A stretch of 64,000 bases of DNA from Candidatus Omnitrophota bacterium (GTDB lineage: Bacteria; Omnitrophota; Gorgyraeia; Gygaellales; Profunditerraquicolaceae). Position 1 is the first letter of the stretch; each line of letters starts with the position of its first letter. The notes below the pieces were generated by a model, which did no database searches, was not told where the DNA came from, and saw nothing but the letters and a program-made list of their open reading frames with translations. Of this stretch, positions 14,599 through 56,203 are shown piece after piece. The stretch is from positions 34,117 through 98,116 of the forward strand of contig CAINQO010000035.1 of NCBI GenBank assembly GCA_903852325.1, written 5' to 3'. A program made the position numbers and the translations under genes.

Positions 14599-14664
14599 AG
14601 GAAGGGCGGATTGAATCCCGCCCTTCCTCAGCGATTTAAGTTAGCAAAGGAAGGGTTGGGATGA
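14599..14664 (+). promoter_or_regulatory. three-arm SD-copy / anti-SD / SD switch with short uORF upstream of the GT4-GT9 gene
   Basis: AGGAAGGGCGG (14599-14609) pairs with CCGCCCTTCCT (14618-14628). The same middle arm can instead pair with AGGAAGGGTTGGGA (14648-14661), which holds the SD and the A of ATG 14661. The uORF runs from TTG 14611 to TGA 14664. Confidence 0.55.
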
Positions 14665-16806: not shown

Positions 16807-16894
16807 AGGGGCGGGATGACCCCGCACCATCTTCTAATTCACGCTTTAAGTCCTAAGGTTTAATAACAATTAACTATAAGGATGGTGCGGGGTG
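16807..16894 (+). promoter_or_regulatory. anti-SD/SD hairpin module upstream of the GT4 gene (degenerate uORF)
   Basis: CCCCGCACCATCTT (16820-16833) pairs with AAGGATGGTGCGGGG (16879-16892) over 14 bp including one G-U. The GTG start is at 16892. Confidence 0.55.
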
Positions 16895-21315: not shown

Positions 21316-22245
21316 ATGATCAACTTAAAGAAGGTTAAAAGATATTCGCTTAAAGCCCGTTTAAGCAAGGTAAATAAGGGGGATTTTGCCCTTAAACCGG
21401 CTAAAGGCAGGAGTTTTTCCGTTTTTTTTGACTCCTTACCTAATATTTTAAAAGCCAAAGATTTACGCTCGGTTTCTGCCGATATTATCGCGGCGCGCCG
21501 GAAAAATAAAGGGGTGATTTTAATGGCCGGGGCCCACGTGATCAAGTGCGGGCTTAATCCGGTTTTGATCGAGTTGTTGGAAAAAAAAGTGATTACCTGT
21601 ATCTGCCTTAACGGGGCCGGATTGATCCACGATTTTGAGATCGCCTACCAGGGGAAGACTTCGGAAGATGTGGCCGCCAACCTCAAAGACGGGAAATTCG
21701 GGATGGGGATCGAGACCGCGGATTTTATCAACGCCGCGGTCAAAGAAGGGACTGAGGCGGGCTTTGGATTAGGTTATGCCTTAGCCAATAAAATGGCCGG
21801 GGCAGCTTTACCCAATAAAGATCTAAGCCTGATTTATAATGCCTATAAGCGTAAAATCCCGGTTTGTGTTTTTGCGGCGATCGGTACGGATATAATCCAT
21901 CAGCACCCTTCTTTCGACGCTGCGGCAACCGCCGTGGGCTCATTGCGGGATTTCCATATCCTGGTGGAGAGGATCCGCTCCTTGAATCAGGGGGGAGTGG
22001 TTTTAAATTTCGGCTCCGCGGTGCTTTTGCCTGAAGTATTTTTAAAGGCTTTGAACCTTGCCCGCAACCTGGGCAGCAAAGTGAAAGATTTTACTTCCGC
22101 TAATTTCGATATGATTTACCAGTACCGCGCGGCACAGAATGTAGTGAGCCGTCCCACCGCTTCCGGGGGTAAAGGCTATTATATTATCGGTCACCATGAG
22201 ATCATGCTGCCGCTTTTAGCCCAAAGTATATTGGAAAAAATCTGA
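21316..22245 (+). CDS. deoxyhypusine-synthase-like (DHS-fold) family protein, function unknown
   Basis: MAGAHVIKCGLNPVLIELLEKKVITCICLNGAGLIHDF and IPVCVFAAIGTDIIHQHP resemble DHS-family blocks; this is a by-eye call only. ATG 21316 is preferred over the track's TTG at 21277. Confidence 0.45.
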   Translation: MINLKKVKRYSLKARLSKVNKGDFALKPAKGRSFSVFFDSLPNILKAKDLRSVSADIIAARRKNKGVILMAGAHVIKCGLNPVLIELLEKKVITCICLNGAGLIHDFEIAYQGKTSEDVAANLKDGKFGMGIETADFINAAVKEGTEAGFGLGYALANKMAGAALPNKDLSLIYNAYKRKIPVCVFAAIGTDIIHQHPSFDAAATAVGSLRDFHILVERIRSLNQGGVVLNFGSAVLLPEVFLKALNLARNLGSKVKDFTSANFDMIYQYRAAQNVVSRPTASGGKGYYIIGHHEIMLPLLAQSILEKI

Positions 22246-22317
22246 CCCCGCACCTTCTTCGTATTCGATCTGAAGGTCAGGGGTAAAAAATAGTTAATAA
22301 TAGGAAGGTGCGGGGTG
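22246..22317 (+). promoter_or_regulatory. anti-SD/SD hairpin module between the DHS-like gene stop and the heptose kinase start
   Basis: CCCCGCACCTTCTT (22246-22259) begins directly after the TGA stop (22243-22245). It pairs over 14 bp with AGGAAGGTGCGGGG (22302-22315). The GTG start is at 22315. Confidence 0.6.
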
Positions 22318-23328
22318 AAGAACCTAAAAGAGATTGTCCGCAAATTCAAGCGGGCTAATATTTTGGTCGTCGGAGACCTGATCCTGGATGAATACATCTG
22401 GGGCGCGGTGGAGAGGATCTCTCCGGAGGCTCCCGTGCCGGTGCTTTGGGCCAACAAACGTACTTTTGTTCCCGGGGGCACCGCTAACGTGGCCAATAAC
22501 ATCGGCTCCTTCGGGGCAAAAGTGACTCTTTTGGGGGTCACCGGTTCCGACGCGAACTCCAAGATTTTGCTGGGCGAATTAAAGAAGAGAAAGATCGATA
22601 CGCGGGGTATTTTTGTCGAAAAAAATCGGCACACTACGGTCAAGACGCGGATCCTGGCCGGGCATCAGCAGGTAGTCCGGGTGGATTGGGAACATACCCA
22701 TGATCTGTCTCAAGAGTTAAACGATAAGATTTTAAAATTCATCCAGAAGAATATCGATGATTTCGACGCGATCATTATCGAGGATTACGGCAAAGGGGTA
22801 ATCAATGTCCCGCTCTTGAAAACGCTGATCGCTTTGGCGAAAAACCATAAAAAAATCATTACCGTTGATCCGAAAGAGGAGAACTTTCAGTTTTATCGGT
22901 CGGTAGATTCGATCACTCCTAACCGCAAGGAGCTGGAAAACGCGATAAGGAATTTGAAGATCCAGGACACGACCAACGGTTTCAAGATCAATACGGATAA
23001 ACTCTTTACGGATAAGGATGTGGACCGGGCTGCCCGGGAGATCCTGGAATACCTGCGTCTTGATTCTATTCTGGTTACCCTGGGGGAGCACGGGATGAAA
23101 CTTTTGGAAAAGAACGGCCGCCTTACCCATATTCCCACGGTAGCCCAGGAAGTTTTCGATGTTTCCGGCGCGGGGGATACCGTAATCAGCACCTTTACCC
23201 TGGCTTTAAGCGTGGGCGCTTCCAAATTAGAGGCGGCGCACATCGCCAATTTTGCCGCAGGGATAGTGGTAGGTAAATTGGGCACGGCAGTGACCAACAC
23301 TAAAGAACTATTAGAAAGGATTAAATAA
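22315..23328 (+). CDS. hldA: D-glycero-beta-D-manno-heptose-7-phosphate kinase (RfaE domain I type, stand-alone)
   Basis: ILVVGDLILDEYIWGAVERISPEAPVPV and the PfkB C-terminal motif DVSGAGDTV. No adenylyltransferase domain is present. Confidence 0.85.
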   Translation: MKNLKEIVRKFKRANILVVGDLILDEYIWGAVERISPEAPVPVLWANKRTFVPGGTANVANNIGSFGAKVTLLGVTGSDANSKILLGELKKRKIDTRGIFVEKNRHTTVKTRILAGHQQVVRVDWEHTHDLSQELNDKILKFIQKNIDDFDAIIIEDYGKGVINVPLLKTLIALAKNHKKIITVDPKEENFQFYRSVDSITPNRKELENAIRNLKIQDTTNGFKINTDKLFTDKDVDRAAREILEYLRLDSILVTLGEHGMKLLEKNGRLTHIPTVAQEVFDVSGAGDTVISTFTLALSVGASKLEAAHIANFAAGIVVGKLGTAVTNTKELLERIK

Positions 23329-24881: not shown

Positions 24882-24899
24882 ACTTTAATAAGGTGCGGG

Positions 24900-25868
24900 A
24901 TGAGTATTGATTTGATCAAACGGGCAAAAGAAGTTTTGGAAATCGAAGCGCAGGCAGTGCGCCGGTTAAAGGGGTGCCTGGATAAAGGTTTTATTAAAGC
25001 GGTTGAGCTGATCCTGAAGAGCAAGGGCAGGGTAGTGGTTAGCGGAATGGGCAAGACCGGAATTATCGCCCAAAAATTTTCCGCGACTCTTGCTTCGACC
25101 GGGACCCCCAGTTTATTCCTGCATACCGCCGAAGCTATTCACGGGGATTTAGGCAAGGTTACCGCGGATGATGTGGTGATCATCCTTTCTAACAGCGGTT
25201 CGACCGAGGAGATGAAACAGCTTTTGCCGATCCTCAAAAAGATCGGCGCTCCGATCATTTCTTTGACCGGCAACACCAAATCCATTCTGGCCAAATACAG
25301 CGATGTGGTCCTGGATGTCTCCGTGAAAAAAGAGGCCTGTCCGTTAGGTTTGGCCCCCACGGCTTCCACTACCGCGGCTTTGGCGATGGCCGATGCCCTG
25401 GCGGTCTGCCTGCTGGAACGTAAGGGGTTTAAAGAAAAGGATTTTGCATTTTTCCATCCTGGGGGCACTTTAGGCAAGCGCCTGCTTTTGAGCGTCGCGG
25501 ATATCATGCGCCAGGGGCAGTCTAATGCCATTGTCCGCGAGGATAAATTGGTGGCGGAAGTTTTGTTGGCGATTACCCGGGCCCGGGCCGGCAGCGCTAT
25601 TGTGGTGGATAAGCAGGGAAAACTGAAGGGGATATTCACCGACGGAGACCTGCGCCGGCATTTAGCCACCGACAAGTATTTACCGCAGCGGCCGATCAAA
25701 GAAGTAATGACCAAAAACCCCACGGTAGTGAGCAAAGATATGCTGGCGGCAGAGGCGATGCGGATATTACAGGCCAGGAAGATCGATGAAGTCCCGGTGG
25801 TGGATAAATTCAGGCGCCCGGTGGGCTTATTGGATGTCCAGGACCTGCTTAAAGCCGGATTAATTTAA
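24900..25868 (+). CDS. kdsD: arabinose-5-phosphate isomerase (SIS plus tandem CBS)
   Basis: GRVVVSGMGKTGIIAQKF SIS motif and a C-terminal CBS pair. Its initiation string AAGGTGCGGGATG belongs to the recurrent family. Confidence 0.9.
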   Translation: MSIDLIKRAKEVLEIEAQAVRRLKGCLDKGFIKAVELILKSKGRVVVSGMGKTGIIAQKFSATLASTGTPSLFLHTAEAIHGDLGKVTADDVVIILSNSGSTEEMKQLLPILKKIGAPIISLTGNTKSILAKYSDVVLDVSVKKEACPLGLAPTASTTAALAMADALAVCLLERKGFKEKDFAFFHPGGTLGKRLLLSVADIMRQGQSNAIVREDKLVAEVLLAITRARAGSAIVVDKQGKLKGIFTDGDLRRHLATDKYLPQRPIKEVMTKNPTVVSKDMLAAEAMRILQARKIDEVPVVDKFRRPVGLLDVQDLLKAGLI

Positions 25869-28106: not shown

Positions 28107-28248
28107 CCCCGCACCTTCTTCTGTATTCGGAAGAAAAACGGATTGATTAAAGGCGCGGGACAATAATAACCATGGTCATTTCTTTAAACATCAAGGTTCA
28201 AAGCTTAGATGCAGGGAATGATATAATTAAGAAAGAAGGTGCGGGGTG
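28107..28248 (+). promoter_or_regulatory. anti-SD/SD hairpin module (109-nt loop) between the lptB stop and the tig start
   Basis: CCCCGCACCTTCTT (28107-28120) begins directly after the TAA stop. It pairs perfectly over 14 bp with AAGAAGGTGCGGGG (28233-28246). The GTG start is at 28246. Confidence 0.6.
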
Positions 28249-29133: not shown

Positions 29134-29266
29134 CGGTATTCATGTTGATTAGCTCCGCGCCTAAGCCTTGGATGTTACGCTTAGCATATATTCGAATATT
29201 GTAACGCGCGGAGTAAATTAAAAATTACCACTTATTATAAATAATTTTAAATTTAAGGAGGCAAAA
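29131..29266 (+). promoter_or_regulatory. structured leader/repeat upstream of clpP (copy 1 of 2)
   Basis: About 90 nt are shared with 55531-55645. The 8-bp stem CTCCGCGC/GCGCGGAG (29153-29160/29206-29213) encloses hairpin CTAAGC/GCTTAG and the palindrome ATATTCGAATAT. Confidence 0.55.
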
Positions 29267-31090: not shown

Positions 31091-31220
31091 CAAATCCTAG
31101 GCACTAAATCCTAAACTCTAAACAAACTCAAAAAATTTAAACTCAAAACCCGAAACATGGGTTTGGAGTTTTGGATTTTGGATTTGTTTAGGATTTAGAG
31201 TTTAGTGTTTAGAGTTTAGA
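31091..31220 (+). repeat. inverted pair of heptamer tandem arrays forming a long imperfect hairpin
   Basis: The left arm is built of CTAAAYY-type 7-mers (31091-31151). The apex is AAAACCC-gaaacat-GGGTTT. The right arm is built of TTTAGRR/TTTGGAK 7-mers (31159-31220). Confidence 0.5.
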
Positions 31221-31240
31221 ATAATAATGAGGGGTGAGAG

Positions 31241-32827
31241 ATGATCAAAGTTTTAGTCAGTGATGCGTTAAGCCAGGAAGGGCTCAAAATATTCAATGAT
31301 TGCAAAGAGCTTACCGTAGATGTCAAGACGGATTTAAAACCCGATGCGCTCAAAGAAATCATCAAGGATTATGACGCTTTGGTGGTCCGCAGTGCGACCA
31401 AGGTGACCAAGGAAATAATCCAGGCCGCCGAAAAACTAAAAGTGATCGGCCGGGCCGGAGTAGGTTTGGATAATGTGGATCTGGAAGCGGCGACCGCCAA
31501 AGGGATCATCGTTATGAACACCCCGGCGGGAAACACGATCTCTACCGCCGAACATACCTTCAGCATGATCCTGACCTTATCCCGGAATATCGCCCAGGCA
31601 AACGCCTCGATGAAGAAGGGGGAATGGAAACGTTCCAAATTCATGGGGGTGGAATTATACAATAAGGTTTTGGGGATCGTTGGGTTCGGCCGGATCGGTT
31701 CGGAGGTGGCTAAGCGCGCGCTTTCATTCGGAATGAAGGTGTTGGCGTATGACCCGTTTTTATCTGCCCAGGTTGCCGAGAGCATCGGGGTGGAGATTGC
31801 CGAATTGAAGAAGGTACTGCAGGAATCCGACTATATTACCGTGCACACTCCTTTAACCGAAGAAACCAGGCACATGATTTCGGATAAAGAATTCGCTTTA
31901 ATGAAAAAGAATGTGCGCATCGTCAATTGCGCCCGCGGCGGGATCATCGACGAACTGGCTTTAGTCAAAGCGGTTAAAGAAGGTAAGGTTTCCGGAGCGG
32001 CGATGGATGTTTTTGAAAATGAACCGCTGGCCGCCGACAGTGAACTTTTGAAGCTGGATAACGTGATTACTACTCCGCATCTAGGGGCTTCTACCGAAGA
32101 GGCGCAGATCAATGTCGCCATCGAAGTGGCGGAGATCGTGCGCGACGCGCTCCTGGGCCGGGGGATCCGTAACGCCGCCAATTATCCCTGCTTAGAAGCG
32201 GAGGTGTGCAAGATCCTTAATCCCTACATTAACCTGGCGGAAAAACTGGGGATGTTCAGCGCCCAGCTGGTTGAGGGCCGGTTCCAGGAATTAGTGATCA
32301 ACTATAGCGGACAGATCACTAAGTATGATTTAAGTTCGGTAACCATGGCCCTGGCCAAAGGACTGCTTACCCCGATATTAAAAGAGACGGTTAATTTCGT
32401 TAACGGCATCTCTTTGCTCAAAGAAAGAGGGATAAAGCTGCGCGAATCGAAATCCGCGGAAGAAGGAGAGTTCGTTAATCTTATTCAGTTGGAAATTAAG
32501 ACCGACAAAGAAAGCAAATCGGTTTGCGGGACCCTTTCCAGCAATAAGCAGCCCCGTATCGTAAAAATCGACGATTATTACCTGGAATTATACCCGATCG
32601 GAGAAATGGTGTTTATCCGGAATTGGGATAAGCCGGGACTGATCGGAAGCCTGGGGACATTCATGGGTAAGAACGGGATCAATATCGCCGCAATGACCTT
32701 CGGCCGGGATAAACCGGGCGGAAAGGCGATCAGCGTGTTGAACGTGGATAGCCTGGTCAGCCAGGAGATCCTGGACAAGATCAGGGAATTGGAAAATATC
32801 CTCACTGCTAAAATAATCCGGACGTGA
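31241..32827 (+). CDS. serA: D-3-phosphoglycerate dehydrogenase (long form with ASB and ACT domains)
   Basis: GIVGFGRIGSEVA NAD-binding motif; 528 aa with a C-terminal ACT-like region. Confidence 0.95.
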   Translation: MIKVLVSDALSQEGLKIFNDCKELTVDVKTDLKPDALKEIIKDYDALVVRSATKVTKEIIQAAEKLKVIGRAGVGLDNVDLEAATAKGIIVMNTPAGNTISTAEHTFSMILTLSRNIAQANASMKKGEWKRSKFMGVELYNKVLGIVGFGRIGSEVAKRALSFGMKVLAYDPFLSAQVAESIGVEIAELKKVLQESDYITVHTPLTEETRHMISDKEFALMKKNVRIVNCARGGIIDELALVKAVKEGKVSGAAMDVFENEPLAADSELLKLDNVITTPHLGASTEEAQINVAIEVAEIVRDALLGRGIRNAANYPCLEAEVCKILNPYINLAEKLGMFSAQLVEGRFQELVINYSGQITKYDLSSVTMALAKGLLTPILKETVNFVNGISLLKERGIKLRESKSAEEGEFVNLIQLEIKTDKESKSVCGTLSSNKQPRIVKIDDYYLELYPIGEMVFIRNWDKPGLIGSLGTFMGKNGINIAAMTFGRDKPGGKAISVLNVDSLVSQEILDKIRELENILTAKIIRT

Positions 32828-35852: not shown

Positions 35853-37198
<1,346 letters not shown>

Positions 37199-42492: not shown

Positions 42493-43674
42493 ATGAATCC
42501 TGCTCCAAAAAATATTGCGGTTTTAGGTTCCAGCGGCTCTATCGGTCAAAGTACTTTGGAAGTGGTCAGGGGCCTGCCGCGTGAATTTAAAATTGTCGCC
42601 CTAAGCGTTAATTCCGATATTGTCCGGTTAGAACAACAGATCAGGGAATTTAGGCCGAAATTAGTCTGTGTCGGGGATCCCCGGCAAGCGGTAAAATTAA
42701 GCGCCCGGACCGGTCCAGGGGTAAAAGTTCTTTGCGGAAAATCCGGCCTGGAAGAATTGGCGCAGCATAAAGATATTCAACAGGTGATGGTGGCGATTAC
42801 CGGCGCAAATGCTTTAGCTCCGTTAATCAGCGCGATCAAAAGCGGCAAAGAAGTGGCTTTGGCTAACAAAGAAGCGCTGGTGATGGCCGGCTCGCTGGTG
42901 ATGCGTTTAGCCAGCCGGCATAAAGTTTTGATCCGTCCGGTAGATAGCGAACAGTCGGCGATCTGGCAGAGCCTGGGCGATAGCGGGGCGGAAAATATCA
43001 GGAAGATATACCTGACCGCTTCCGGCGGGCCGCTTCGGACCTGGCCGGCAAGTAAGTTTAAGCGGGTGTCGGTGGAAGAAGTATTGCGCCATCCGCGTTG
43101 GAAAATGGGCAGGAAGATCACGGTAGACTCGGCAACCTTGATGAATAAAGGGCTGGAGCTGCTGGAAGCGATGTTCCTGTTCGGCCTGGGGGAGGATAAA
43201 ATAAAAGTATTGGTCCACCCGGAAGCGTTGATCCATTCCATGGTCGAATTTAAGGATGGGGTGACCATGGCGCAGCTTTCCGTCACGGATATGCGCGTGC
43301 CTATCCAGTACGCCTTGACCTATCCCCGGCGCCTGCCGAATACGATCAGGGGAATAGATTTTTACCGTTTGCATAAACTGCATTTTGCCAAACCTGATCT
43401 ACAAAAGTTTCCCTGCCTGGCGCTGGCTTACCAGGCTGCCCGGCAGTTAGGCACCGTGCCGGCGGTTTTAAATGCCGCCAATGAAGCCTGCGTAGAGATG
43501 TTCCTTGAGCGCAAGATCGGTTTCTTAAGTATCGCCGGGATCGTGGAGAAAGTGATGCGCCGCCATACCAGGATTTCTTCTCCGGGATTGCGGGAAATAA
43601 TGGATGCCGATAGCTGGGCCAGGGAGGAAGTTTTGCGCATCGCCGCCGGCTCAAAAACTATGAGGGTTTTATAA
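42493..43674 (+). CDS. dxr: 1-deoxy-D-xylulose-5-phosphate reductoisomerase
   Basis: IAVLGSSGSIGQSTL, LANKEALV and HPRWKMG motifs. Confidence 0.95.
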   Translation: MNPAPKNIAVLGSSGSIGQSTLEVVRGLPREFKIVALSVNSDIVRLEQQIREFRPKLVCVGDPRQAVKLSARTGPGVKVLCGKSGLEELAQHKDIQQVMVAITGANALAPLISAIKSGKEVALANKEALVMAGSLVMRLASRHKVLIRPVDSEQSAIWQSLGDSGAENIRKIYLTASGGPLRTWPASKFKRVSVEEVLRHPRWKMGRKITVDSATLMNKGLELLEAMFLFGLGEDKIKVLVHPEALIHSMVEFKDGVTMAQLSVTDMRVPIQYALTYPRRLPNTIRGIDFYRLHKLHFAKPDLQKFPCLALAYQAARQLGTVPAVLNAANEACVEMFLERKIGFLSIAGIVEKVMRRHTRISSPGLREIMDADSWAREEVLRIAAGSKTMRVL

Positions 43675-53550: not shown

Positions 53551-53719
53551 AGGAAGGGCGGGATGAACCCTGCATTTTCTTGTTATTCAATATTAAAGTC
53601 TTAGGAATTTGATGATTAAACAGAAGGAAGGTGCGGGGGTGAATCCCGCTCCTTCTAATTGTTCAATGCTAAAACCCATACGTTTTAAAGAATTCAATAA
53701 GAAAGAAGGAGCGGGATGA
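53551..53719 (+). promoter_or_regulatory. tandem (about 2.5 copies) anti-SD/SD hairpin modules with two uORFs between trpS and scpA
   Basis: The arms lie at 53551-53562, 53568-53582, 53621-53639, 53644-53656 and 53704-53716. The last pair is a perfect 13-bp helix covering the SD GAAGGAG and the A of ATG 53716. Confidence 0.6.
53639..53719 (+). CDS. candidate 26-aa leader peptide (uORF2); its stop overlaps the scpA ATG
   Basis: The frame GTG 53639 to TGA 53717-53719 encodes (V/M)NPAPSNCSMLKPIRFKEFNKKEGAG. It is preceded by an SD copy GAAGGTG and is homologous to the uORF at 35853-35933. Confidence 0.35.
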   Translation: MNPAPSNCSMLKPIRFKEFNKKEGAG

Positions 53720-54489: not shown

Positions 54490-55504
54490 TTCCGTTATCA
54501 CCGACGTAAAAGAATCCGAAGAGGATATTGTTTTAAATATATCCCTGCGGCCAAATAAATTTACGGATTTTGTCGGGCATAAGGATATCGTGGATAACCT
54601 TAAAATTTCCATCCAGGCCGCCAAGCAAAGGAGCGAGCCCCTGGAGCATGTGCTTTTAAGCGGGCCTCCGGGTTTAGGCAAAACTTCCCTGTCGCATATT
54701 ATCGCTCACGAAATGGGGGCAAAGATCACCGCCACCAGCGGCCCGGCGATCGAGCGGGCCGGGGACCTGATCGGGATCCTTACCAACCTGGAAAGAGGGG
54801 ATATCCTGTTTATCGACGAGATCCACCGGATGTCTAAAGTCGTGGAAGAATTCCTGTATCCGGCGATGGAAAGTTTCCAGATCGATTTTATAATCGATAA
54901 AGGCCCTTACGCTAAAACGATTAAATTCAACCTCAAGCCTTTTACCCTGATCGGCGCCACCACCCGCACCGGGCTTCTGGCCGCTCCGCTCAGGGGGCGC
55001 TTCGGTTTGTTCTACAGCCTGGATTTTTATAAAGAGGAGGAGCTGGCCAGAATAATCAAAAATTCAAGCCAGCTGTTGACGATAAAGATCGATGACGCGG
55101 CGGCACTGGAGATCGCCAAGCGTTCCCGGGGGACTCCCCGGATCGCCAACCGCCTCCTGCGCCGGGTAAGGGATTACGCTCAGGTGTTGAAAATGGATAA
55201 AGTCGAACGGGCCTCGGCCTCCAAGATCCTGGATGACCTGGGTATCGACCAGGCCGGGTTTGATGACCTGGACCGTAAAGTTTTGAGATTAATTTTGGAA
55301 TCATTCGGCGGAGGGCCGGTGGGGATAGAATCTTTGGCCGCCAGCCTCAATGAAGAAGTGGATACGATCGAAGATGCGGTGGAACCCTATCTGTTGATGG
55401 CCGGATATTTAAAGCGCACTTCCCGGGGGCGCCTGGCCACCCGTAAAGCTTATGAACATTTCGGTTTAAAATTCAACCGGGAACAGCAGGAAGAGATTTT
55501 CTAA
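54452..55504 (+). CDS. ruvB: Holliday junction branch migration helicase RuvB
   Basis: LRPNKFTDFVGH, GPPGLGKTSL, IDEIHR and RGTPRIANRLLRRVRD motifs. Confidence 0.95.
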   Translation: MNEETRHPLLKANSVITDVKESEEDIVLNISLRPNKFTDFVGHKDIVDNLKISIQAAKQRSEPLEHVLLSGPPGLGKTSLSHIIAHEMGAKITATSGPAIERAGDLIGILTNLERGDILFIDEIHRMSKVVEEFLYPAMESFQIDFIIDKGPYAKTIKFNLKPFTLIGATTRTGLLAAPLRGRFGLFYSLDFYKEEELARIIKNSSQLLTIKIDDAAALEIAKRSRGTPRIANRLLRRVRDYAQVLKMDKVERASASKILDDLGIDQAGFDDLDRKVLRLILESFGGGPVGIESLAASLNEEVDTIEDAVEPYLLMAGYLKRTSRGRLATRKAYEHFGLKFNREQQEEIF

Positions 55505-55645
55505 ATTAACAATTGCCACTGATTATAATAGGTAGTGGTTGAAAGCGTCGAACTAAGCCTATAGGTTACGGTTTATATATATTCGAATATTGAAACGTTC
55601 GACGTAAATTAAAAATTACCACTGATTATAAACAATTTTTAATTT
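55505..55645 (+). promoter_or_regulatory. structured leader/repeat upstream of queH (copy 2 of 2)
   Basis: The 8-bp stem CGTCGAAC/GTTCGACG (55546-55553/55597-55604) compensates for the copy-1 stem. It carries the same ATATTCGAATAT palindrome and the AAATTAAAAATTACCACT tail. It is flanked by direct repeats AATT(G/A)CCACTGATTATAA (55511-55528 and 55614-55631). Confidence 0.55.
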
Positions 55646-56203
55646 ATGGATATTCTGTTGCACATCTGCTGCGGGCCTTGTTTGATTTATCCTTTCGGCA
55701 AATTAAAAGAAAAAGGATTTAATATCCGGGGTTATTACTATAATCCCAATCTCTATCCGCAGGATGAATATCTTCGCCGCGTTGAGGCGCTGCAGCTCTT
55801 ATGCCGGGAATTTTCGCTGGAGGTCGCCTATCCCGGGCACAACCCTGAGGATTTTTCCCGGACAGTTAAATCCCTGGAAGATCCTTTGGCAAAACAGCGC
55901 TGCGTTTTATGCTGGTCATTGCGTTTGCGTAAGACCGCCCAGGCGGCCAGGGAAGCCGGCGTAAAAACGTTCAGCACTACTTTATTGGTCAGCCCGTACC
56001 AGGATCATGACGCGTTGCGCCGTTTAGGCACTCAGATCGCCCGGGAAACCGGCGTAGATTTTTATTATGAAGATTTCCGCCCCGGGTTTAAATGGGCGCA
56101 GCAGGAAGCGAAAGATAAAGGTATTTACCGGCAAAAATATTGCGGCTGCGAATATTCCATGGTGAAAACAAAACCGGCCGCACCGGTCCAGGCAAAAAAA
56201 TGA
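55646..56203 (+). CDS. queH: epoxyqueuosine reductase QueH (DUF208)
   Basis: LLHICCGPC start and the later CxxC and CGCEYS motifs. It lies in a locus with queA and tgt. Confidence 0.85.
   Translation: MDILLHICCGPCLIYPFGKLKEKGFNIRGYYYNPNLYPQDEYLRRVEALQLLCREFSLEVAYPGHNPEDFSRTVKSLEDPLAKQRCVLCWSLRLRKTAQAAREAGVKTFSTTLLVSPYQDHDALRRLGTQIARETGVDFYYEDFRPGFKWAQQEAKDKGIYRQKYCGCEYSMVKTKPAAPVQAKK

Follow-up and report, generated by a model that had tools for sequence, protein, structure and literature searches.

The kinase junction

This analysis concerns a short palindromic sequence, probably an inserted mobile element and designated copy C below, that separates two genes in a 64,000-nucleotide stretch of DNA from a Candidatus Omnitrophota bacterium (the window; coordinates are those of the window, and the element copies, their parts and the junction features described with them all lie on the + strand). 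The upstream open reading frame (ORF) encodes 322 amino acids with a weak deoxyhypusine-synthase-like Pfam match and ends on a TGA codon at 22243-22245; the GTG at 22315-22317 opens a 337-amino acid PfkB kinase (Pfam E 9e-39), the nearest database relatives of which carry the annotation D-glycero-beta-D-manno-heptose-7-phosphate kinase. The two genes are separated by a gap of 69 nt, and the kinase is presumably co-transcribed with its upstream neighbor in a lipopolysaccharide (LPS)-core operon comprising GT9 genes, the kinase, kdsB, kdsA and kpsF.

The putative element occupies 22246-22315 (covariance-model match 64.5 bits, E 2.7e-14). Its left terminal inverted repeat, CCCCGCACCTTCTT (22246-22259), starts on the nucleotide after the TGA and is an anti-Shine-Dalgarno arm: it pairs over 14 bp (13 Watson-Crick and one G-U) with the right terminal inverted repeat, AGGAAGGTGCGGGG (22302-22315), which contains the Shine-Dalgarno (SD)-like core AGGTG at 22306-22310, 4 nt ahead of the start codon, and ends on the first base of the GTG. 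Within the loop lies a decoy, GAAGGTCAGGGG (22272-22283), a weaker internal copy of the right arm that can also pair with the left arm, through 4 + 6 bp around a 2x2 internal loop (-17.0 kcal/mol). The initial annotation of this stretch, made from the sequence by a model, had described the position of the left arm, the 14-bp pairing and the decoy pairing, and on all three it is exact. It had also pointed to a decayed homologue of a short upstream ORF (uORF), and this too is borne out: the sequence from 22244 (GAC CCC GCA CCT TCT TCG TAT TCG ATC TGA, 22244-22273) encodes DPAPSSYSI followed by a stop, in agreement with the family uORF consensus MNPAPS.YS.I described below. As a uORF for termination and re-initiation, however, the copy C remnant falls short, since it has no start codon (the sequence is ATCTGAC) and an in-frame TGA at 22271.

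The predicted fold of this junction is unusually stable, with a minimum free energy of -32.3 kcal/mol for 22236-22330 (z = -4.9; equally stable shuffles, 0 of 200). Both the SD and the start codon of the kinase are sequestered in it, the pairing probability of the two arms being ~1.0 and the probability that the SD is unpaired 0.05. Neither a promoter-like nor a terminator-like site is found inside the element (22246-22317), and what comes after the stem is GUGAAGAAC; a leader-peptide transcription attenuator and an internal promoter are rejected on this ground. Rfam 15 gives no match at the gathering threshold over the whole window and none at E<=1 on copies C and E.

Insertion at start codons

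What the junction looks like without the element can be read from orthologous kinase loci in metagenomes (80 loci at 72-89% protein identity, of which 74 are usable). In 55 of the 74 the kinase gene shares an ATGA overlap with its upstream neighbor (..GAAAAGATATGAAGAAT..), the unoccupied form of the site; the ancestral junction was ATATGAAG. The junction is filled in some lineages only, with at least three unrelated arm versions: CCCCGCACCTTC, found in the window and in loci L076, L141 and L119, and a second and third version, CCCGCCCTTCC and CCCCGTTAGAAAC. Occupation by unrelated arm versions indicates that this junction was invaded independently several times; a single ancestral element with later precise losses is disfavored on the same ground. 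In six loci (L159, L160, L162, L178, L179 and L188) the CCCCGTTAGAAAC variant lies ~60 nt ahead of the kinase start with arms CCCCGTTAGAAAC / GTTTCTAACGGGG and a decoy of its own, TTTCTAATGGGG; it carries a canonical AAGGAGG at the same ATGA junction, the architecture being kept and the arm sequence not.

Thus, the abutment of the left arm on a stop codon, which the initial annotation took for an evolved arrangement, is better seen as a by-product: the arm touches the stop because insertion happened at the TGA of an ATGA overlap, and the element is absent from the majority of orthologous junctions. The adjacency as such recurs in the family, 24 of 110 copies (about one in five) abutting the stop of a long upstream ORF.

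The junction of kdsA and kpsF tells a similar story, with an ATGA overlap in 25 of 48 loci, and several lineages have full elements. These are flanked by TGAA...TGAA or TGAG...TGAG, the choice tracking the ancestral second codon (AAx or AGA), and the empty sites, ATGAAG and ATGAGA, agree with the filled flanks. The retention of the ancestral second codon in the right flank implies a true 4-bp target duplication. Across 110 oriented copies the two flanks covary (TGAA/TGAA in 66, TGAG/TGAG in 4, TGGA/TGGA in 3; hypergeometric p = 3e-4 for TGAG and 9e-5 for TGGA). At the kinase junction the upstream gene's TGA (22243-22245) would be the left copy of the duplication, its fourth base (A) having been lost, and TGAA at 22316-22319 the right copy. 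A control within the same operon bears on target choice: hairpin elements are found at 18 of 123 starts of the form ATGAA or ATGAG and at none of 138 starts of the form ATGGA (kdsB) or ATGCA/ATGCG (kdsA; Fisher p = 6e-7).

Empty sites always have an ATG start, whereas filled sites have GTG, or ATG in those variants that begin with T and end with A. This pattern implies that the new start codon is assembled from the element's last base and the duplicated TG; in the GTG of the kinase, the G would be contributed by the element and the TG by the target. Polymorphism extends to the kpsF, tig and glycosyltransferase junctions: the trigger-factor site is empty (ATGAAAACC) in the ortholog L098, and the site of the glycosyltransferase gene that starts at 14661 is empty in L091. 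Tandem stacks (F1-F2 in the window, and also L154 and L178) would follow from the fact that each insertion regenerates TGAR beside a start codon on both sides.

The reading favored here, with a probability of roughly three in four, is that 22246-22315 is a partly decayed copy of a non-autonomous palindromic element resembling a MITE (a miniature transposable element with inverted repeats), which inserts into the TGAR of start codons, rebuilds the start codon and the SD, and carries a uORF that relays translation to the displaced gene.

Distribution and consensus of the family

A scan of one genome per species with the pattern CCCGCNCCTTCTN{35,65}GAAGGNGCGGG finds at least 114 loci. Among the matches listed, most are metagenome-assembled genomes (MAGs) of Candidatus Omnitrophota, some are labelled Planctomycetes-like or Bacteroidetes, and a minority of GC-rich matches look like chance. 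Genuine-looking copies occur in MAGs labelled Phycisphaerae, Planctomycetia and Planctomycetales and in one labelled Bacteroidetes (L012, L014, L017, L024, L028, L049, L055, L057, L059, L072 and L016); either the element reaches beyond Omnitrophota or those bins are mislabelled. A scan of 2.9 M viral contigs gives no match to the element, and carriage by phages is not supported.

The consensus is ATGAAC-CCCGCACCTTCT-(AT-rich loop)-AATAAGAAA-GAAGGTGCGGG-GTGAA. Copies are 60-140 nt long and have terminal inverted repeats of 13-14 nt (YCCCGCACCTTCT / AGAAGGTGCGGGR), no transposase gene and, as their sole ORF, a uORF of at most 26 codons. The first and last bases of the element covary, forming C-G in 69 copies and T-A in 25. 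The family thus has the structural properties by which MITEs are recognized: it is short and without transposase, it has terminal inverted repeats, it duplicates its target relative to empty sites, and it is multicopy with polymorphic sites. It is this family of translation-start MITEs that would be the object of interest; copy C itself would, to judge from its sequence, be an ordinary decaying copy.

Copies in the window

A 12-mer of the arm has 19 matches with at most 2 mismatches in the window (8.55 +/- 2.76 expected), and repeat finding ties the region of copy C to 16856, 28217, 35854 and 53640. The covariance model recognizes seven copies in the window and no others, each of them on the + strand and with its end on a start codon. 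The genes that they precede (those of two glycosyltransferases, of the kinase and of trigger factor, purA and scpA) are unrelated to one another. All seven share one long-range stem between the left arm and an SD-like right arm that extends to the start codon's first base (z -2.4 to -4.9), and in copies B and F2 compensatory changes are found in both arms.

Copy A (14611-14664) has variant arms, TCCCGCCCTTCC / GGAAGGGTTGGGA; its uORF (TTG..TGA) encodes MNPALPQRFKLAKEGLG and ends on a stop that overlaps the start (ATG at 14661) of a GT4+GT9 glycosyltransferase gene. Copy B (16816-16894), with the compensatory arm change CCATC/GATGG, supplies the GTG at 16892 of a GT4 glycosyltransferase, and just upstream of it lies an older right-arm remnant, GGGGCGGGATGA. 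Copy D, at 140 nt (28107-28248), has its left arm directly against the stop codon (TAA) of an ABC ATPase gene and precedes the GTG at 28246 of trigger factor. Copy E (35853-35933) has an intact relay, with a uORF peptide of 26 letters and a uORF TGA overlapping the GTG at 35930 of purA. The tandem copies F1 and F2 (53563-53719) lie upstream of scpA, which starts with ATG at 53716: the F1 uORF encodes MNPAFSCYSILKS, and the F2 uORF, from GTG 53639, encodes MNPAPSNCSMLKPIRFKEFNKKEGAG and ends on a TGA overlapping ATG 53716. Two changes in the F2 arms (TCCCGCTCC/GGAGCGGGA) are compensatory. The uORF (MNPA...) of copies A, E and F2 starts just ahead of the left arm and its TGA overlaps the main ATG or GTG. 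The dxr gene at 42493 opens with ATGAATCCTGCTC (MNPA...), which resembles the start of an element uORF; coincidence or a fused remnant could explain the likeness.

An apparent deletion remnant, ACTTTAATAAGGTGCGGG + ATG (24882-24902), consisting of the right arm only, lies ahead of the kpsF-like gene. This gene retains just the last 18 nt of the element (AATAAGGTGCGGG + ATG), its relatives having either an ATGA overlap or a full element, and with only the right arm remaining its SD is unmasked. A strong SD is missing from most genes of the window: cores of 5 nt or longer are found at 18 of 60, and 7 of these 18 are borne by the element. An organism-wide initiation motif or extended anti-SD was rejected as an explanation, in that GGTGCGGGRTG is found at only 7 of 60 starts and orthologs of those genes are without it. 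Among the 60 gene-like ORFs of the window eight start with GTG, and four of these starts (16892, 22315, 28246 and 35930) appear to have been made by element insertion; GTG usage in this genome would on that account be in part a transposon footprint.

The upstream open reading frame

Where a copy is intact, a uORF (MNPAPS...KEGAG) begins at the displaced native ATG and runs through both arms to a TGA overlapping the new start. A complete uORF of this kind, with its stop overlapping the main start, is present in 36 of 110 copies, and in 89 of the 110 an ORF of 100 codons or more comes next. Measured from uORF start to main start, the spacing equals 2 mod 3 in 60 of the 110 (p = 6e-6), with peaks at 74, 77, 80, 83 and 86 nt, and the uORF frame is free of stops in 44 of 109 copies, compared with 5 and 6 for the two remaining sense frames. 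The terminal repeats are symmetric, yet the loop is oriented one way relative to the gene in 96 copies and the other way in 11 (as scored by a purine-asymmetry test, used in place of an unreliable motif regular expression).

One clear copy with its loop reversed relative to the gene (L014:7575-7660, - strand) still has an open, in-frame uORF (MNPAPSFHSIFFKSLFRYIEYLEGAG), and the PAPS...EGAG frame, when read on the reverse strand, contains no stop in 46 of 109 copies. A functional micropeptide was considered and rejected: the central part of the uORF lacks conservation, and its conserved ends are set at the nucleotide level by the arms.

In the proposed relay, ribosomes translating the uORF would unwind the stem and initiate anew at the overlapping start codon, and a relay of this sort would make insertion nearly harmless; the gene behind the element can probably still be translated.

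The decoy

Pairing of the left arm with a segment of the loop, at -14 kcal/mol or below, is predicted in 53 of 103 copies (4 of 103 when the loops are shuffled). Among the copies in the window only copy C has such a pairing, at -16.9 kcal/mol in this comparison, and a segment homologous to its decoy is found in L076, L141 and L119. Recurrence across copies, and the separate decoy of the unrelated CCCCGTTAGAAAC variant, mark the decoy as a trait of a subfamily to which copy C belongs rather than a local accident.

The initial annotation had proposed that the decoy, by engaging the left arm, frees the real SD. The required pairing is possible and recurs in the family. On the other hand, the decoy fold loses to the long stem at equilibrium, at -28.3 compared with -33.1 kcal/mol in the context of copy C (~5 kcal/mol worse), and its equilibrium probability is essentially zero. 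In these models the decoy could matter only kinetically. A kinetic role is conceivable because the decoy is transcribed before the right arm; it would then hold the left arm only transiently, during transcription.

History and translation of copy C

The insertion that gave rise to copy C is shared by L076, L141 and L119, in which the left junction is ATATGA(A)-CCCCGC and the uORF would begin at the ATG of the former ATGA overlap. The lineage of the window has undergone an ATA>ATC change, which is synonymous (Ile) in the upstream gene, and a 1-nt (A) deletion, and the uORF start of copy C is gone as a consequence of the two. The stem at the orthologous copies ranges from intact in L076 (-30.9, z = -5.6) through weaker in L141 (z = -2.0) to structurally dead in L119 (z = -0.3).

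With its SD 95% paired, unaided initiation on the kinase gene should be poor. With the stop codon in the A site, a ribosome extends over roughly 6-10 nt of the arm, judging by its footprint and by the position of the mRNA helicase. Ribosomes that end translation at 22243-22245, directly against the left arm, would on this basis transiently melt 6-10 of its 14 bp. The exposed SD would then be taken by a new initiation (ribosome-assisted unfolding), instead of one ribosome scanning across 69 nt. The corresponding claim of the initial annotation, that a ribosome at the stop codon covers the 5' arm, stands to the extent that most of the arm melts and the SD is largely freed in the model; modelled ribosome cover to +15 frees it. 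The choice between the two modes of coupling rests on published work: re-initiation by the same ribosome is nearly abolished beyond ~20 nt (PMC10666635), and ribosome-assisted unfolding is an established mode of coupling that can drive new initiation (PMC4538824). Since the uORF ATG of copy C has been lost, its SD is masked and re-initiation fails beyond ~20 nt, we infer that termination-dependent unmasking, which the initial annotation had suggested, is the most plausible remaining route for translation of the kinase.

Weighing the alternatives

Several observations count against the proposed MITE-like insertion with translational relay, or limit parts of it. An autonomous parent, which would be an insertion sequence bounded by CCCCGCACCTTCT with 4-bp TGAR duplications, has no candidate in 1.26 Mb of fetched loci, where no arm pairs are found 200-4000 nt apart around an ORF. 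Flank identity is imperfect, with mixed TGAG/TGAA pairs in 5 copies. The frame statistics are inflated by the shared ancestry of the copies, and about half of the uORFs end early, for which reason the relay must be regarded as a tendency and not a rule. Stem mismatches show no RNA-specific bias (37 G-U and 26 A-C), so that the compensatory arm changes could reflect palindrome correction at the DNA level. At the kinase locus itself, loss of the stem in L119 argues against strong selection for the hairpin, and ribosome cover modelled to +11 or +13 leaves a residual CUUCU:AGGAA pairing of 4-5 bp, which qualifies the unmasking described above.

Some of these points would also fit a selfish insertion that is merely tolerated and has no working coupling. 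The hairpin would then just lower translation of the kinase, residual expression coming from spontaneous breathing or from a co-transcriptional fold of arm and decoy, with no contribution from upstream termination. The missing uORF start of copy C, the frameshifted or short uORFs and decaying stem of its orthologs, the absence of an RNA-specific selection signal in the stem mismatches and the weakening of the start from ATG to GTG are all in keeping with this. It is nevertheless unlikely: an equilibrium SD accessibility of only 0.05 sits poorly with a gene in a conserved LPS-core operon, and the strong bias of the family in orientation and open frame points to selection acting via translation.

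That the host evolved the structure as a riboregulator, with stop-abutting arm, decoy and SD arm constituting a switch selected to couple kinase translation to upstream termination, is improbable. The same cassette precedes unrelated genes, its orthologous copies decay, most orthologous junctions are plain ATGA overlaps, and abutment is the automatic result of insertion at TGA. The features that recommend a switch are the three-part layout, which recurs in half of the family and in the unrelated CCCCGTTAGAAAC / TTTCTAATGGGG / GTTTCTAACGGGG variant, and an SD that is masked and, in the model, unmasked by a ribosome on the stop codon; the decoy's deficit at equilibrium counts against it as a switch.

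Also very doubtful is descent from a palindrome of the REPIN type (built from repetitive extragenic palindromic, or REP, sequences) or from IS200/IS605, mobilized by a Y1 transposase (TnpA or the REP-associated tyrosine transposase, RAYT) and inserted on the 3' side of a fixed tetranucleotide, with no duplication. Such an origin would account for the two inverted arms and their spacer, the high copy number, an orientation fixed relative to a non-palindromic target and the few mixed TGAG/TGAA flanks. But ATGAGA sites give TGAG...TGAG and TGGA pairs with TGGA, as expected of a true 4-bp duplication, and the arms are not themselves palindromes, lack a GTAG-type head and are sited at gene starts rather than 3' ends. 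Finally, a role of the stem on mRNA or DNA, as a barrier to 3'-exonuclease protecting the upstream cistron, a site of RNase processing or a palindrome bound by protein (roles in which REP and Correia elements are known to act), would suit a stable GC-rich 14-bp stem straight after a stop codon but is likewise very doubtful, in that the right arm invariably runs exactly to the start codon's first base with a correctly spaced SD-like core and the uORF frame is preferentially open, neither of which is needed for stability or DNA binding.

On the favored reading the locus is the product of an insertion history instead of a bespoke regulatory device for the kinase gene.

Implications

A wider proposition can be put forward tentatively, at somewhat less than even odds: that Omnitrophota harbor MITEs specialized for translation starts, frequently those in ATGA overlaps of operons, which regenerate their own target and carry a built-in relay, that hundreds of genes per genome are translated only by way of element-borne coupling, and that the decoy adds a kinetic or alternative-fold layer. 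If this is true, a mobile element neutralizes, and possibly regulates, its own insertions at the level of translation. If the relay works, a transposable element lives in a compact, operon-dense genome by landing on start codons and handing translation on, neither avoiding genes nor being spliced out. A sizeable share of Omnitrophota genes would then be initiated through a mobile, hairpin-masked SD (in the window, 7 of 60 genes and half of the GTG starts), and the start codons and uORFs called in these MAGs should be re-examined. Filled, empty and decayed junctions together also make up a natural series on the reach and route of translational coupling.

Other repeats in the window

A second repeated intergenic element is found at 29174-29259 and 55565-55650 (plus 55502-55528). 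It is 86 nt long and 85% identical between the two places, contains a palindrome, ATATTCGAATAT, and a 27-nt sub-repeat, TAAATTAAAAATTACCACTNATTATAA, and is situated just upstream of clpP (29267) and queH (55646), which are unrelated; a shared promoter or operator is conceivable, as is another mobile repeat. An inverted repeat of TTTAGAG/CTCTAAA-like units at 31094-31222, with 29-nt arms that are 79% complementary, fills the 164-nt gap ahead of a serA-like gene at 31241, and a similar spacer rich in simple repeats occurs in L180.

Comparison with known systems

In the published literature, coverage of which was incomplete so that this is no proof of novelty, no description was found of such an element in Omnitrophota, nor of MITEs that supply a start codon or an SD; a 2024 review of prokaryotic MITEs (PMC10969869) makes no mention of 'start codon', 'ribosome binding' or 'Shine-Dalgarno'. 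Prokaryotic MITEs (for example Correia/NEMIS of Neisseria, ERIC and RUP; PMC10969869) are close in general form, being short, devoid of transposase, bounded by terminal inverted repeats and a short target duplication, multicopy, present or absent at orthologous sites, and co-transcribed with their neighbors as hairpins. The Omnitrophota element differs from them in targeting the TGAR of start codons, in rebuilding start and SD, in carrying a uORF that ends on the new start and in having almost always the same orientation to the gene. Rickettsia palindromic elements are likewise palindromic repeats compatible with translation and encode a recognizable peptide (PMC10969869), but they lie in frame inside coding sequence and become part of the protein, whereas the Omnitrophota element provides a separate uORF ahead of the gene, coupled to it through overlapping stop and start. 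With REP sequences and REPINs and their RAYTs the likeness is that of abundant extragenic palindromes with two inverted arms and a spacer; the 4-bp duplication, the position at gene starts, the non-self-palindromic arms and the lack of a GTAG head set the Omnitrophota element apart.

The proposed workings have counterparts in translational coupling. A masked SD and start codon opened by an upstream ribosome is the situation analyzed as ribosome-assisted unfolding by Tian & Salis (2015, PMC4538824), and a uORF stop that overlaps the main start as RTGA resembles termination-reinitiation at ATGA overlaps (Huber et al. 2019/2023, PMC6728339, PMC10666635). In contrast with these systems, the Omnitrophota device is mobile and copied to many unrelated genes, and in copy C the gap, at 69 nt, is far beyond the range of ~20 nt.

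IStrons, which are IS200/IS605 elements fused to a group I intron, neutralize their own insertion by RNA splicing. The concept of a self-neutralizing insertion is shared, with no sequence or mechanistic relationship found; the Omnitrophota element would achieve the same end by translational relay.

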